Positions 51,601-62,345 of a stretch of 64,000 nucleotides of DNA are shown piece after piece. Made by a program: the position numbers and the translations under genes. The stretch is taken from the NCBI GenBank assembly GCA_031701365.1, contig GCA_031701365.1_4118.1; one strand, given 5' to 3'. This DNA is from Escherichia coli (lineage in GTDB: Bacteria; Pseudomonadota; Gammaproteobacteria; Enterobacterales; Enterobacteriaceae). The notes beneath the pieces are model-generated. The model was given only the letters and a program-made list of their open reading frames with translations. It made no database searches and was not told the DNA's origin. Numbering within the stretch: position 1 is the first letter of the stretch; each line of letters opens with the position of its first letter.

Positions 51601-51690
51601 GTTTTACATCAGGACGGGGAACGAAATAAGTAACTTCCCGTTAAGTAGCCCAGGAGTAAGGCAAACGAAAAACTCCCCTGATAAAATAGT
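51601..51690 (+). ncRNA. candidate structured leader or small RNA (copy 1 of 2)
   Basis: about 90 nt between tandem promoters, about 90 percent identical to 62262-62345; ends AUCAGGACGGGGA and UCCCCUGAU can pair to enclose the element. Confidence 0.3.
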
Positions 51691-51718
51691 TTGACAAATG
51701 TTTTTAAAAGCGTATAAT
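51691..51718 (+). promoter_or_regulatory. sigma70-type promoter (TTGACA-16-TATAAT)
   Basis: read directly; second tandem promoter before the 51751 gene. Confidence 0.55.
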
Positions 51719-51750
51719 ACTTACATCAACTACTGAATGAGGGTTACAAA

Positions 51751-52362
51751 ATGAAAACTATCACTACTACTACTTTCGTTATGGATTTTTCTGAATTGAA
51801 CGCAGAACAAAAAACGTCAGCTATCGAACTGGTTCGGGAACGTGAAAAAAACTCAAACGATGATTATTTTTCTGAAAGTGAAATTGAATACTATAAAGAA
51901 ACAGTACTACCGGAATATGGCATTAATGACGCTGATTTACGATTCAGTGGCTTTTGGTCCCAGGGTGACGGTGCATCAATCAGTACTGACCACGTTGACG
52001 CAGTGAAGTTTTTACGCAAGGTAAGAGCATTAACTAAGTATCGCTCAATCCGTCACCTGCTGAATGAAGATGATTTGGCGATGAGTGTAAAGCGTTCGCA
52101 CTCCCACTACTCGCATGAGAATACTGTAAGCGGGTACATTGAATCGGCTTACACTGATTTAACCGCAAAACAAGAAACGTTAGTTAATGAGCTTGAGGAA
52201 CTACTCACTGAAACTATTCGTGAATTATCCCGCAAGTTGTACCGTGATTTAGAGAATGCATATGAGGATCAATTCACTACTGAAAACATTACGGCACTGA
52301 TTGAGGGTAACGAATATCAATTCAATGTTATTGATGGCGTAGTAGAATCAATCGAATATTAA
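51751..52362 (+). CDS. hypothetical acidic protein
   Basis: 203-aa ORF. Confidence 0.65.
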   Translation: MKTITTTTFVMDFSELNAEQKTSAIELVREREKNSNDDYFSESEIEYYKETVLPEYGINDADLRFSGFWSQGDGASISTDHVDAVKFLRKVRALTKYRSIRHLLNEDDLAMSVKRSHSHYSHENTVSGYIESAYTDLTAKQETLVNELEELLTETIRELSRKLYRDLENAYEDQFTTENITALIEGNEYQFNVIDGVVESIEY

Positions 52363-52374
52363 TTTAAAAAGTAC

Positions 52375-52433
52375 TTGCAAACTAAGTTTAAAAGCGTATA
52401 ATACTTTATATCGAGGCGGGGAATGGTTCCCCG
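52375..52433 (+). promoter_or_regulatory. PeSL-like promoter plus stem-loop
   Basis: TTGCAA, TATAAT, hairpin GCGGGGAATGGTTCCCCGC. Confidence 0.65.
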
Positions 52434-52452
52434 CTTGAACGAGGATTTAAAA

Positions 52453-52692
52453 ATGGCTAGTACTAAAACTTACAACGGACACAAAAACAAAACTCATTGG
52501 AATGTAAGCCTTTGGATTAATAACGGTGAGTCATTGTATCGGCTTGCTCAAAGTTGCATCGCACAAAGTAGAACTAAAGATATTGCAGCGGAATGTATGT
52601 ACCGCAGATTAAAAGCCAACGGTACTACTACAACGCCGGACGGCTTTAAGTATAGCACTACTGCGATCCGTGCTGCAATGGTTGGAATGTAA
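52453..52692 (+). CDS. hypothetical protein (paralog of the 50413 gene)
   Basis: start set at ATG 52453. Confidence 0.7.
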   Translation: MASTKTYNGHKNKTHWNVSLWINNGESLYRLAQSCIAQSRTKDIAAECMYRRLKANGTTTTPDGFKYSTTAIRAAMVGM

Positions 52693-52749
52693 TATTCAGT
52701 ACTGAGATAATGGCGGGGATTGGTTCCCGCCTTTAATGAGGATTATATA

Positions 52750-53034
52750 ATGAGCAAAGTAATTAGCTATAAGGCATTAACCAAATCATTGTCTATCAGT
52801 GAATGCACCGATGGTTTTTGGATGTACGATGAAACGCGTGGCATGAATTTAGCGATGCGTGCAAAAACTGCTGAGGCGGCGTATCTTGAAGCCCTGGGAT
52901 ACTACCAGGAACGATTAAAGGAAGTAGAAAACGATTATAATAACCTGAAAGCGAAAGTAGATCATTTCGTCGGTCAATTCGTTGACGATGACGAGGACGG
53001 GCACTACTGCGACCGTTGCGGATCTTACAGTTAA
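52750..53034 (+). CDS. hypothetical protein
   Basis: start set at ATG 52750; preceded by hairpin GGCGGGGATTGGTTCCCGCC. Confidence 0.6.
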   Translation: MSKVISYKALTKSLSISECTDGFWMYDETRGMNLAMRAKTAEAAYLEALGYYQERLKEVENDYNNLKAKVDHFVGQFVDDDEDGHYCDRCGSYS

Positions 53035-53051
53035 GTACTAAGGATTATATA

Positions 53052-53255
53052 ATGAGTGATTTAATTGAACGTATCAAAGAGCTTGAAGAAAAAGAATTGC
53101 AGTTAATCGGCTTACAGAATAAAATCTTTCATGATTTGGGGAGTTTTATCAATGCCTGGGATAGTGGCGATCCTGATGCGTTACCTGCTAACCGCACGGC
53201 AATGATCAATGATGTGCGTGGTGTCTTTGATTATGTTTTAAAGCAATTAAATTAA
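53052..53255 (+). CDS. hypothetical protein
   Basis: start set at ATG 53052. Confidence 0.55.
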   Translation: MSDLIERIKELEEKELQLIGLQNKIFHDLGSFINAWDSGDPDALPANRTAMINDVRGVFDYVLKQLN

Positions 53256-53264
53256 AAAAGTACT

Positions 53265-53323
53265 TGCAATTAGTTTTCAGTACTGTATAATGGTTTACAT
53301 CAAAGGGAGAAATGGTTCTCCCT
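53265..53323 (+). promoter_or_regulatory. PeSL-like promoter plus stem-loop
   Basis: TTGCAA, spacer with CAGTACTG, TATAAT, hairpin AGGGAGAAATGGTTCTCCCT. Confidence 0.6.
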
Positions 53324-53341
53324 GGTAATGAGGAAAATACA

Positions 53342-53563
53342 ATGGCTAATATCACTACTCTTTCCCAACTGGAAGCACTGGTTAAATCTATGCGGGAACA
53401 TGCCGACAAAATCGGCGTACAAGATCCAGCCGTTTGCTTCTGCGACGAATTGAATGATGATACCCTGGTAATAGCAGAAGTCCAGGACGTTTCTAACTAT
53501 TCCTCGCGTTACACTGGCGGCGTAGCAAATAAAGGTGACTTCTGTTTATACCTTACAAAATAA
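53342..53563 (+). CDS. hypothetical protein
   Basis: start set at ATG 53342. Confidence 0.6.
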   Translation: MANITTLSQLEALVKSMREHADKIGVQDPAVCFCDELNDDTLVIAEVQDVSNYSSRYTGGVANKGDFCLYLTK

Positions 53564-53731
53564 CAACGCGGGGAGATAATAACTCCCCGTTACTTTTTCA
53601 GTACTGAATCATTTAATAGACGGATCTATGCACCCGGTGGGTTAGTGACTGTTTCGTCTTGATGTAGTAATTATGCCAGTACTGGATGCACTTGTCAACA
53701 ATTATTTTCCAAATACTTTTTATTAAAATAC

Positions 53732-60804: not shown

Positions 60805-60821
60805 ACTAAGAGGAAATAAAA

Positions 60822-61010
60822 ATGGAAAACTTATCAAGTATTTTAGTACAAGATGATTTCGGTAATCCTGGAAGTGCTATCATTGTTCGGGGTAATAAAG
60901 CAACATTTGTTATTGCTGGTGGACCTGTACAGCGTAGCATTAAAAACAATGCCGTTACTATTAATAATGTACGCTATCGCTTAGATAAAGAATTGATTCA
61001 TAAACTGTAA
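60822..61010 (+). CDS. hypothetical protein
   Basis: 62-aa ORF. Confidence 0.55.
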   Translation: MENLSSILVQDDFGNPGSAIIVRGNKATFVIAGGPVQRSIKNNAVTINNVRYRLDKELIHKL

Positions 61011-61037
61011 TATTAATTTAATAGAGGATAACAATAA

Positions 61038-61361
61038 ATGTACATTCATACTACTATCACAAAGGAAGTCCGTTGCCAGTTCGAAAGTATTCCGGGCGTA
61101 TGTTTCATCACTGGTACGTTTTCCCCTGGTGATCGTGATAATCCAGTACTGTTACAATTACGCCATCCATCATGGGATAAAGCATTTGATCTACCGTTGA
61201 ATGAATTCGCAACTACTGCTGAAAAGTACATTAAAAATATTCGTGAGAATGATCGACTATTCATTAATGCTTTTAGTGATTCCACGTTAAGCGAGATCCA
61301 CGGCGTATTGGTTGCAATCATGGAATCAATGGAGAAAACTAAATTCAAACAAGGTGAATAA
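61038..61361 (+). CDS. hypothetical protein
   Basis: 107-aa ORF, RBS AGAGGATAA. Confidence 0.65.
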   Translation: MYIHTTITKEVRCQFESIPGVCFITGTFSPGDRDNPVLLQLRHPSWDKAFDLPLNEFATTAEKYIKNIRENDRLFINAFSDSTLSEIHGVLVAIMESMEKTKFKQGE

Positions 61362-61367
61362 AAACTA

Positions 61368-61427
61368 TTGACAATGTAATCTAGTACTGTATAATAAGTT
61401 ACATGAAGGGGAGAAATGATTCTCCCC
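61368..61427 (+). promoter_or_regulatory. PeSL-like promoter plus stem-loop
   Basis: TTGACA 61368-61373, TATAAT 61390-61395, GGGGAGAAATGATTCTCCCC 61408-61427. Confidence 0.65.
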
Positions 61428-61444
61428 ACTGAGAGGAAAGAAAA

Positions 61445-61657
61445 ATGCAAGGTCAACTAATCGTTCGTAAATGGTCTGATACTAATGAAAAACCGTGGGA
61501 TGTTCAATACATCGGACCGGATGGGGTATCACGTTATCAGCCTGGCGTAACGCATAGTACTGAGCAATATGCCACCGCTCACCGTGAACGCCTGTTAGAA
61601 TCTATGAAACAGGGATTCTGTGAAAAATTCATTCAAGATCATTGGCTGAAAGATTAA
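61445..61657 (+). CDS. hypothetical protein
   Basis: 70-aa ORF. Confidence 0.6.
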   Translation: MQGQLIVRKWSDTNEKPWDVQYIGPDGVSRYQPGVTHSTEQYATAHRERLLESMKQGFCEKFIQDHWLKD

Positions 61658-61763
61658 TAGAAGGAGTACAGCTTATGCAAATGAATCCGATGATTGTTGT
61701 GTTAGCTGTACTTATGATCATTCATGCCATCGTAGAAGTACTAACACAATCAGGAGTAATACA

Positions 61764-61934
61764 ATGATCCAGGTAGAATTATCAGTACTGAAAGATCTGT
61801 TTTATCGGTTAGGCACTACTGGCGAATACCCTAAAGGGGATACTGCTAAACTATACATTGCATTGGATGTATGGCAACGTAATGAACTGGCTAACGCCTG
61901 GCGTAAAGGTAAATCAGAGGGGATTGCAGCATGA
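61764..61934 (+). CDS. hypothetical small protein (56 aa)
   Basis: not in ORF track; RBS CAGGAG. Confidence 0.4.
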   Translation: MIQVELSVLKDLFYRLGTTGEYPKGDTAKLYIALDVWQRNELANAWRKGKSEGIAA

Positions 61935-62080
61935 AAGAATTTTTATTCGAAGTAGTGTTTCAAGGTGTCGGTAGTAACCAACTGATACGTTCAAGTGGTT
62001 ACAATGTTAACCAGGCATGGAATAACATTAAACAAATGTACCCGAACGCTATCACATATCGCAACCCAAAACAAGTTTAA
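61931..62080 (+). CDS. hypothetical small protein (49 aa)
   Basis: not in ORF track; ATGA overlap with previous ORF. Confidence 0.4.
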   Translation: MKEFLFEVVFQGVGSNQLIRSSGYNVNQAWNNIKQMYPNAITYRNPKQV

Positions 62081-62094
62081 AAAGAATTAAAAAA

Positions 62095-62119
62095 GGGATT
62101 GACTCCGGTCAGTCCCTTT
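62095..62119 (+). terminator. intrinsic terminator (GGGATTGAC-TCCG-GTCAGTCCC)
   Basis: variant of the recurring GTTGAC hairpin. Confidence 0.65.
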
Positions 62120-62227
62120 GCTATTATATATGCATAGAAACAAATCAGCCCACAGGGTGCATAAATGTATCTATTATATGCTGGTGGCTAGTACTATCAA
62201 GTACTGAAAACTATTTTTAAAAAGTAC

Positions 62228-62255
62228 TTGCAAAGTATCACGATAAGCGTATAAT
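62228..62255 (+). promoter_or_regulatory. sigma70-type promoter driving the conserved leader (copy 2)
   Basis: TTGCAA ... TATAAT. Confidence 0.55.
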
Positions 62256-62261
62256 GTATTA

Positions 62262-62345
62262 CATCAGGACGGGGAACGAAACAAGTAACTCCCCGTTAAG
62301 TAGTCCAGGAGTAAGACATACGAAAACCTCCCCTGATAAAATAGT
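62262..62345 (+). ncRNA. candidate structured leader or small RNA (copy 2 of 2)
   Basis: about 90 percent identical to 51601-51690. Confidence 0.3.

Follow-up and report, generated by a model that had tools for sequence, protein, structure and literature searches.

A predicted pseudoknotted RNA element at the start of early transcripts in jumbo coliphages and T7-like phages

Introduction

The DNA considered in this work is a stretch of 64,000 nucleotides (nt) from the Escherichia coli assembly GCA_031701365.1 (contig GCA_031701365.1_4118.1), referred to below, as a whole, as the window. The region of interest is 97-99% identical to jumbo coliphages of the PBECO4/121Q/G17 type (Asteriusvirus) and falls within their early region. 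A preliminary description of the window had pointed to two copies of an element of about 90 nt lying between tandem promoters, with a third, partial relative at about 54558, and had proposed that the element could be a small RNA or a regulatory leader. The main result reported here, which we hold with high confidence, is that this element is a real structured RNA, homologous to an element in the early region of bacteriophage T7.

Results

Organization of the locus

At the transcript level, two copies are indeed present, both on the plus strand: copy A at 51606-51690 and copy B at 62261-62345. Their alignment needs no gaps and shows 6 differences in 85 bases (about 93% identity, close to the 90% initially estimated). 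Copy A is preceded by a first promoter (promoter P1, 51573-51600, plus strand, TTGCAA-16-TATAAT, with an A/T-rich, UP-like region upstream) and followed by a perfect one (promoter P2, 51691-51718, plus strand, TTGACA-16-TATAAT), which drives a gene of 203 amino acids (aa) at 51751-52362. Copy B is arranged in the same way, between a promoter P1 at 62228-62255 (plus strand, TTGCAA-16-TATAAT) and a promoter P2 at 62346-62373 (plus strand, again a perfect TTGACA-16-TATAAT), the latter driving an open reading frame (ORF) of 44 aa at 62404-62538. The suspected third relative is a shorter copy C (54560-54621, plus strand), located behind a promoter at 54525-54552 (plus strand, TTGACA-16-TAGAAT); no second promoter follows it, and the placement between tandem promoters thus applies to copies A and B only. 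Copy C is the direct 5' leader of a 160-aa gene (54676-55158). All window copies have a strong sigma-70 early promoter at most about 100 nt upstream on the same strand, and the promoter P1 cassette of copy A also drives at least 10 other early genes between 48 and 64 kb. A degenerate 30-base pattern of the core retrieves exactly copies A, B and C in the window (0.00 matches expected from shuffles).

Regarding the protein families of the genes downstream of the element, only PHROGs of unknown function were matched (phrog_5162 for the 203-aa gene and phrog_27871 for the 160-aa gene). Identical intrinsic terminators (AGCCCACCTTAAACAGTGGGCT followed by a T-run), at 54445-54466 and 55180-55201, flank the promoter, copy C and the 160-aa gene, and, since they bracket this unit, it can be regarded as a self-contained cassette. 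In a comparison made only by eye, EJP2, Munch, L039 and Hallingskeid have a gene with a similar N-terminal sequence following the element.

Occurrence in other phages

By BLAST, the A/B-type element is found in 45 phage records, including Vequintavirinae and Justusliebigvirus, and in the relatives of this set the order promoter, element, promoter is kept without exception. Versions about 90% identical occur in Justusliebigvirus (outra, muut) and in rV5-like Vequintavirinae (A73, A7_1), at loci where this order is maintained and where the downstream genes differ from those of the window. The genome of vB_Ec-M-J, an annotated relative, has copies A and C within its direct terminal repeats, and each of them is, consequently, present twice. 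Divergent versions are found in a 366-kb IMG/VR contig, in Salmonella phage Munch and in Klebsiella K64-1 and KP13-7, and further ones in Erwinia Hallingskeid, EJP2 and LTH01. Among the carriers are further jumbo phages of the Rak2-like group.

Additionally, the core matches phages of the T7 group, and a phiA1122 query returned 585 phage records, chiefly from many genera of the Autographiviridae, plus jumbo phages. In T7 itself, a covariance-model hit of 85 bits places the element at 534-599, between the start of A1 (498) and that of A2 (626), as a 65-nt domain spanning +37 to +102 of the A1 transcript, where no annotation exists. In phage 13a, whose A1 (504-540) and A2 (631-668) promoters are annotated, the core match (593-628) falls in the interval that separates them, and in LIMEzero an annotated host promoter is likewise present on either side of the element. 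A covariance model built from 24 distinct T7-like sequences only, and run with filters off on both strands of the 64-kb window, recovers copy C (29 bits, E = 1.5e-6), copy B (24 bits, E = 5.9e-5) and copy A (22 bits, E = 2.5e-4), the next-best match in this search having E = 4.5. With this model, the remaining copies of jumbo, rV5-like and Justusliebigvirus phages were retrieved as well.

The element is confined to virulent phages, nearly all of them of Enterobacterales. A host copy was sought by BLAST in 5,426 E. coli genomes with no match, and pattern scans of metagenomes and GTDB genomes returned only Asteriusvirus contigs, the 366-kb contig and chance matches. The element is carried between phage lineages within a promoter cassette of this kind.

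Predicted fold and covariation

The predicted fold comprises a closing helix (helix P1), an optional hairpin (P2), a helix P3 of 4-5 base pairs (bp) and a pseudoknot between the junction and the P3 loop. In copy A, helix P1 is formed by 51608-51613 and 51677-51682, P2 by 51614-51620 and 51635-51641, and P3 by 51653-51656 and 51673-51676 (with its loop at 51657-51672); the junction (UAAGUAGCC) covers 51642-51650, and the pseudoknot (plus strand) joins 51648-51650 to 51660-51662. The corresponding positions in copy B are 62263-62268/62332-62337 (P1), 62269-62275/62290-62296 (P2), 62297-62305 (junction), 62308-62311/62328-62331 (P3) and 62303-62305 with 62315-62317 (pseudoknot), and those in copy C, which is devoid of P2, are 54560-54562 plus 54565-54568 with 54615-54621 (P1), 54577-54585 (junction), 54588-54591/54608-54611 (P3) and 54583-54585 with 54595-54597 (pseudoknot). 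The junction is invariant, reading (U/C)AAGUAG-N-C, and is followed by 2-3 nt and then by P3, whose loop of 16-17 nt reads UAAG-N'-C-NN-ACGAAAA-N. Both motifs are present in all three window copies, and the pseudoknot pairs the G-N-C of the junction with the G-N'-C of the loop.

The preliminary description had proposed that the two ends of the element pair, AUCAGG with CCUGAU and GACGGGGA with UCCCC. The former pairing is helix P1; the latter is not retained, given that ACGGGG pairs locally with CCCCGU, forming hairpin P2. The C-run of copies A and B is shared out between P3 (CUCC) and helix P1 (CCUGAU). Helix P1 is AUCAGG/CCUGAU in copies A and B and AUC..GACG/CGUCGAU in copy C, with at least 15 sequence versions among relatives, and P3 is GGAG/CUCC in copies A and B, CCAG/CUGG in copy C, and CCUG/CAGG or CUUG/CAAG in T7-like phages. 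In the jumbo-type version, helix P1 begins 2-3 nt from the transcription start and closes a three-way arrangement with the optional P2, which is present in copies A and B, L039, Munch and KP13-7 and absent from copy C, EJP2, LTH01, Hallingskeid, K64-1 and LIMEzero.

For the 24 T7-like sequences, three helices were specified: a small hairpin (e.g. CCGG/CCGG), helix P1 (which here consists of the loop of this hairpin and the strand directly after P3) and P3. Between 93 and 94% of the cells are paired (93.3% for the three specified helices), against 14-35% when the partners are slid (16-35% for these three), and 10-11 pairs change on both sides (10 of 15 for the three helices), values reached by none of 500 shuffles. 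Helix P1 occurs in this set in variants such as GUCAA/UUGAC, GUCGGU/ACCGAC, GUCAUC/GAUGAC, GUCAGA/UCUGAC, GAUUAG/CUAAUC and GUCAAG/CUUGAC, and RNAalifold, with no structure supplied, predicts helix P1 and P3. In the alignment of all 42 model hits, the P3 pairs vary as CG/GC, CG/GC/UA and UA/AU/UG, and, in the 41 distinct sequences, 97.9% of the cells are paired, against 17-35% when slid. The pseudoknot was absent from the covariance model that aligned these hits, and its N:N' pair is AU in 26, UA in 11 and CG in 4 of the 41 distinct sequences, with no exception (AU 19 and UA 5 in the T7-like phages; UA 8, AU 7 and CG 5 in the jumbo-type set). KP13-7 shows, besides this, a second compensatory pseudoknot pair.

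The six differences between copies A and B do not disrupt the pairing, since all of them preserve pairs or fall at positions that vary in the family: one is in the P2 loop, one changes a G-U to a G-C pair in P2, two are at variable positions of the P3 loop, and the remaining two are the covarying pseudoknot pair itself (C-G in copy A and U-A in copy B, to be compared with A-U in copy C). Overall, the covariance signal is strongly positive, the helices being kept by compensatory changes in four unrelated lineages, and the initial suggestion of a small RNA or regulatory leader is thus supported.

Because the MAFFT alignment of the jumbo-type set placed the 3' strand of P3 wrongly, we used partial-structure counts and an alignment fitted to the covariance model. 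Of 20 jumbo-type sequences folded singly for minimum free energy, 19 have helix P1 as the closing helix and 17 have both helix P1 and P3. The fold z-scores of copies A and B taken alone are modest (-1.9 and -2.2, respectively), and it is for this reason that covariation, and not folding energy, carries the case. G-U pairs, unlike C-A (seen a single time), are frequent, and they occur on the promoter-sense strand only, which indicates that the transcript from the upstream promoter is the strand that folds. The unpaired bases of the element are extremely conserved, about 20 of them being invariant in the junction and loop. In a separate observation, when muut (L004, 2001-2085) is compared with outra, its 5' G-run is longer by one G and its 3' C-run by one C, which could be a coincidence, a homopolymer sequencing error or an alternative long-range pairing between the two runs.

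Comparison with known RNA classes

In Rfam 15, no match at gathering score was found in the whole window, and only noise was obtained at E <= 10 around copy A and in T7 480-930; ARAGORN found no tRNA or tmRNA in the window. The model derived from T7-like phages was also run, with filters off, on the whole HK022 genome, where it found nothing at E <= 1 that would indicate homology to put. Mimicry of the rrnB leader was rejected, as there is no similarity and the local likeness GUCGCA..ACGAAAAA falls at loop positions that are variable in other phages. A hammerhead was rejected as well: the T7 sequence CUGAUAA...CGAAA resembles its core, but CUGA is not conserved in other members. No riboswitch expression platform was recognized, given that a promoter or a spacer of about 50 nt, and no terminator or pairing of the ribosome-binding site (RBS), comes after helix P1.

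boxA sequences near the element

A boxA (GCUCUUUAACAA) is found 25-440 nt after the element in 22 of the 28 T7-like loci, this distance being 25-40 nt in LIMEzero-like phages. In T7, boxA is cited as a functional antitermination element (Savalia 2010, cited in PMC3709561). Regarding related observations, a boxA-like sequence, CGCUCUUUA(U)ACAAUCUGG, is conserved in early leaders of Autographiviridae (L093, about 4165-4185; L069, about 925-945; and the T7-like loci); in T7-like phages it comes after a small hairpin whose loop is UAACGAAA, and in LIMEzero the boxA-like site is annotated as 'putative promoter'. The sole exact 12-mer boxA match in the window (GCTCTTTAACAA, 12707-12718, minus strand) has no visible promoter-like sequence, is apparently coding and is probably fortuitous.

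Other repeats and cassettes in the window

The window contains other repeated sequences. The 8-bp palindrome CAGTACTG occurs 54 times in the window (about 1 expected), often in or beside early promoters (e.g. at 48211, 48251, 48394, 51368, 53278, 59753 and 60334), and is also found flanking promoters of K64-1, Munch and L039; a phage regulator may use it as an operator, or it may have to do with methylation or restriction. A second repeat family, CCCANNGGGTGCANAANTGTANCT, has five copies (0.02 expected), at 51408-51431, 58111-58134, 59796-59819 and 62149-62172 on the plus strand and at 51453-51476 on the minus strand. Element copies A and B are preceded, at a distance of 110-200 nt, by two of these repeats, which are part of a shared upstream module, and the repeats at 51408 and 51453 form an inverted pair adjoining a leftward TG-extended promoter (51526-51498). 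This repeat could be a terminator or a second small RNA.

Most early promoters of this region (transcript starts at 49590, 50367, 51046, 52408 and 55394) are followed by ACAUCGAGAGCGGGAA...UUCCCGCU, a 5' hairpin, and then by an RBS. The initial bases of early transcripts, AUCGAGAG.GGGA, resemble the initial transcribed sequence of T7 A1, AUCGAGAGGGACACGG, which suggests promoter/initial-transcript cassettes shared, or convergent, between jumbo phages and T7. Furthermore, the small early genes at 50413-50652 (MAKSKMFLGHKNKTQWNVSLWINN...) and 52423-52692 (MASTKTYNGHKNKTHWNVSLWINN...) are paralogues, and a homologue lies downstream of the element in Justusliebigvirus outra.

Discussion

A gene-independent RNA module as the proposed function

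The explanation that we consider best overall, and to which we give about an even chance, is that the element is a gene-independent pseudoknotted RNA module of early transcripts that binds a component of the host. The conserved block extends from the transcription start to just after helix P1, and the downstream genes vary both by copy and by phage; this, together with the movement of the block between phages, argues for an autonomous RNA device and not for a regulator of a specific gene. The display of about 20 invariant unpaired bases on a pseudoknot argues, in turn, for specific recognition of a partner. To our knowledge, the jumbo, T7-like and other carrier phages have no early protein in common and, since the RNA is made before any phage protein, a host partner is the most likely one.

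In the proposed mechanism, the host sigma-70 RNA polymerase, starting at the strong early promoters, would produce the element as the first 65-90 nt of the transcripts. Helix P1 closes the domain (in the jumbo version, also tying up the 5' end), and the pseudoknot would display the invariant unpaired bases to a host component, the candidates being the elongating RNA polymerase, the termination machinery, an RNA-binding protein or a nuclease. Binding would take place as soon as the phage DNA is transcribed, and the element would affect the very transcript or polymerase on which it is carried, independently of the gene downstream. That the module acts in cis in this way through a bound host factor is a more tentative proposition, to which we give less than an even chance, the function being deduced from sequence comparison. 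Some hints of a cis action are, nevertheless, available: the element is always upstream of early genes and on their strand, no terminator comes after it, copy C and its relatives are plain 5' untranslated regions (UTRs) of a conserved gene, and, in T7-like phages, the element and boxA are part of one leader.

Several observations weigh against this proposal. In T7, the element is present on A1 transcripts only, and the A2 and A3 transcripts of the same genes are made without it. Moreover, the T7 leader is removed by RNase III at R0.3, which weakens models that need a lasting tether or stabilization in cis. In the window, copy C is followed by its gene and then by the terminator at 55180-55201, so that read-through is not obviously needed there. 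No similarity was found to HK022 put or to the rrnB leader, and none of 15 jumbo, rV5-like or Justusliebigvirus copies has a boxA within 1.5 kb downstream, from which it follows that the element does not depend on the Nus/boxA system. Finally, the existence of a dedicated promoter, from which no ORF is reached ahead of the next promoter, would be just as compatible with an RNA gene standing on its own.

Alternative explanations

This last arrangement leads to the possibility, which we regard as somewhat unlikely, that promoter and element together form an RNA gene whose product, freed by processing or by decay of the read-through transcript, acts in trans as a decoy or small RNA, sequestering a host RNA-binding protein, nuclease or defence sensor, or base-pairing with a host RNA, at the start of infection. 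Copies A and B, each with a promoter of its own and no ORF ahead of the next one, are what would be expected of such a gene, as are the two to three copies per repeat region (with A and C doubled by the terminal repeats of vB_Ec-M-J) and a cassette about 90% identical between unrelated phage groups. The presence of the element on the product of only one of the three tandem T7 promoters, and the loss of the leader to RNase III, are also easily accommodated, and the extreme conservation of the unpaired bases, the restriction to virulent phages nearly all of Enterobacterales and the lack of a BLAST match in the E. coli genomes point in the same direction. However, neither a terminator nor a recognizable processing site sets a 3' end, copy C and its relatives have the form of ordinary 5' UTRs of a conserved gene, and no candidate target has been identified.

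A ligand-sensing aptamer or a small self-cleaving ribozyme in the early leader seems improbable to us. The architecture is suggestive: the domain is compact (50-65 nt) and closed by helix P1, it contains an A-rich strand and a single pseudoknot (T7-like phages have two), and some 20 bases of its junction and loop are invariant, a pattern typical of riboswitch aptamers and small ribozymes; in the case of a ribozyme, the downstream RNA would have a 5'-OH end. Yet no riboswitch or ribozyme family of Rfam is matched even at E <= 10, and on the 3' side there is a promoter, or about 50 nt before the RBS, in place of an expression platform. As for the ribozyme, we know of no report of self-cleavage in the decades of in vitro transcription from T7 A1 templates, many of which end short of the element. 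Still less probable, to the point of being very improbable, is that no RNA device exists and that the conserved block is, instead, a small ORF, a site at which a protein binds DNA, or what remains of a decayed gene after promoter cassettes have recombined. The promoter cassettes of this region are repeated and recombinogenic, and a 31-codon ORF (51599-51694 at copy A) does span copies A and B. Its ATG, however, is inside the -10 hexamer, upstream of the transcription start; 4 of the 6 A/B differences alter the amino acid, the substitutions being mostly non-synonymous; homologues have indels of 1, 2 and 4 bases; and, when aligned with A and B, copy C shows a gap of 17 bases. Together with the conservation across four phage lineages, four covarying helices with G-U pairs on one strand only speak for RNA, and it is the covariation that effectively refutes this explanation.

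Relation to other structured RNAs

A possible precedent for a host-factor-binding module acting in cis is provided by putL and putR of phage HK022, which are also structured RNAs located just downstream of early promoters used by the host polymerase, in a phage without an N protein. The put RNA brings about factor-independent antitermination in cis through the zinc-binding domain of the beta-prime subunit; acting on the polymerase without any phage protein, it is a possible model for the element. It consists, however, of two stem-loops with no pseudoknot, and has no sequence or structure similarity to the pseudoknotted element. T7 early transcripts that carry the element still stop at the TE terminator in vitro. 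The nut sites of lambda (boxA-boxB) and the rrn leader (boxB-boxA-boxC) are, like the element, leader elements of operons with tandem strong promoters, and the GAAAA of lambda boxB recurs in the P3 loop; nevertheless, the loop of the element, which has 16-17 nt and is pseudoknotted, is not a GNRA-like pentaloop.

With the preQ1-I and SAM-II riboswitches and the leader pseudoknot of T4 gene 32, the element shares a small leader pseudoknot in which a conserved A-rich strand recrosses a short helix, and the T4 case illustrates that a phage 5'-leader pseudoknot is able to nucleate protein binding. The element differs from these H-type pseudoknots in that its loop pairs with the 5' flank and not with the 3' tail, and in the absence of an Rfam match, an expression platform or a linked autoregulated gene. 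The PeSL cassettes of T4-type phages (early promoter plus stem-loop) recall the repeated early-promoter cassettes of the window, with their 5' stem-loop and small ORFs, but their stem-loops are simple hairpins without a conserved pseudoknotted core. Lastly, phage pseudo-ToxI is, like the element, a phage-encoded, early-expressed and pseudoknotted non-coding RNA, and the neutralization of a host abortive-infection toxin by ToxI mimics is a precedent for a decoy; the element is not, however, a tandem array of 34-45 nt units as in ToxI, and no ToxI match was obtained in Rfam at E <= 10.

Novelty and meaning

Structured leader RNAs in phage early operons are already known, as nut, put and the T4 gene 32 pseudoknot demonstrate. 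The family described here has no entry in Rfam 15, and its novelty appears to lie in the fold, in how widely it is distributed and in its occurrence in T7. In the literature, searched also with the literal T7 sequence, we found no description of the element, its sequence occurring only in template and guide listings; this search covered few subscription journals, and an older remark on T7 may exist. It may be, and here our confidence is evenly balanced, that the element belongs to a novel class of phage RNAs with a pseudoknot, of which T7 itself has a member, overlooked until now in its A1-A2 spacer, and which has spread by horizontal exchange between virulent phages of Enterobacterales, involving four or more of their lineages. 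The infection would then have this RNA as its first functional product, acting either as a protein-free device for host takeover or anti-defence, or as an aptamer or ribozyme of a new kind.

The early transcription of phages is studied with T7 as the reference system, and the region of its A1 promoter is in standard use as a laboratory template. The element lies in the DNA that enters the cell first, is transcribed ahead of any phage protein and has been acquired as a cassette by unrelated phages, which suggests an autonomous, selectable function with a target specific to enterobacterial hosts. In this way, an anonymous repeat of a jumbo phage becomes a hypothesis that would be directly testable in T7 with standard genetics.

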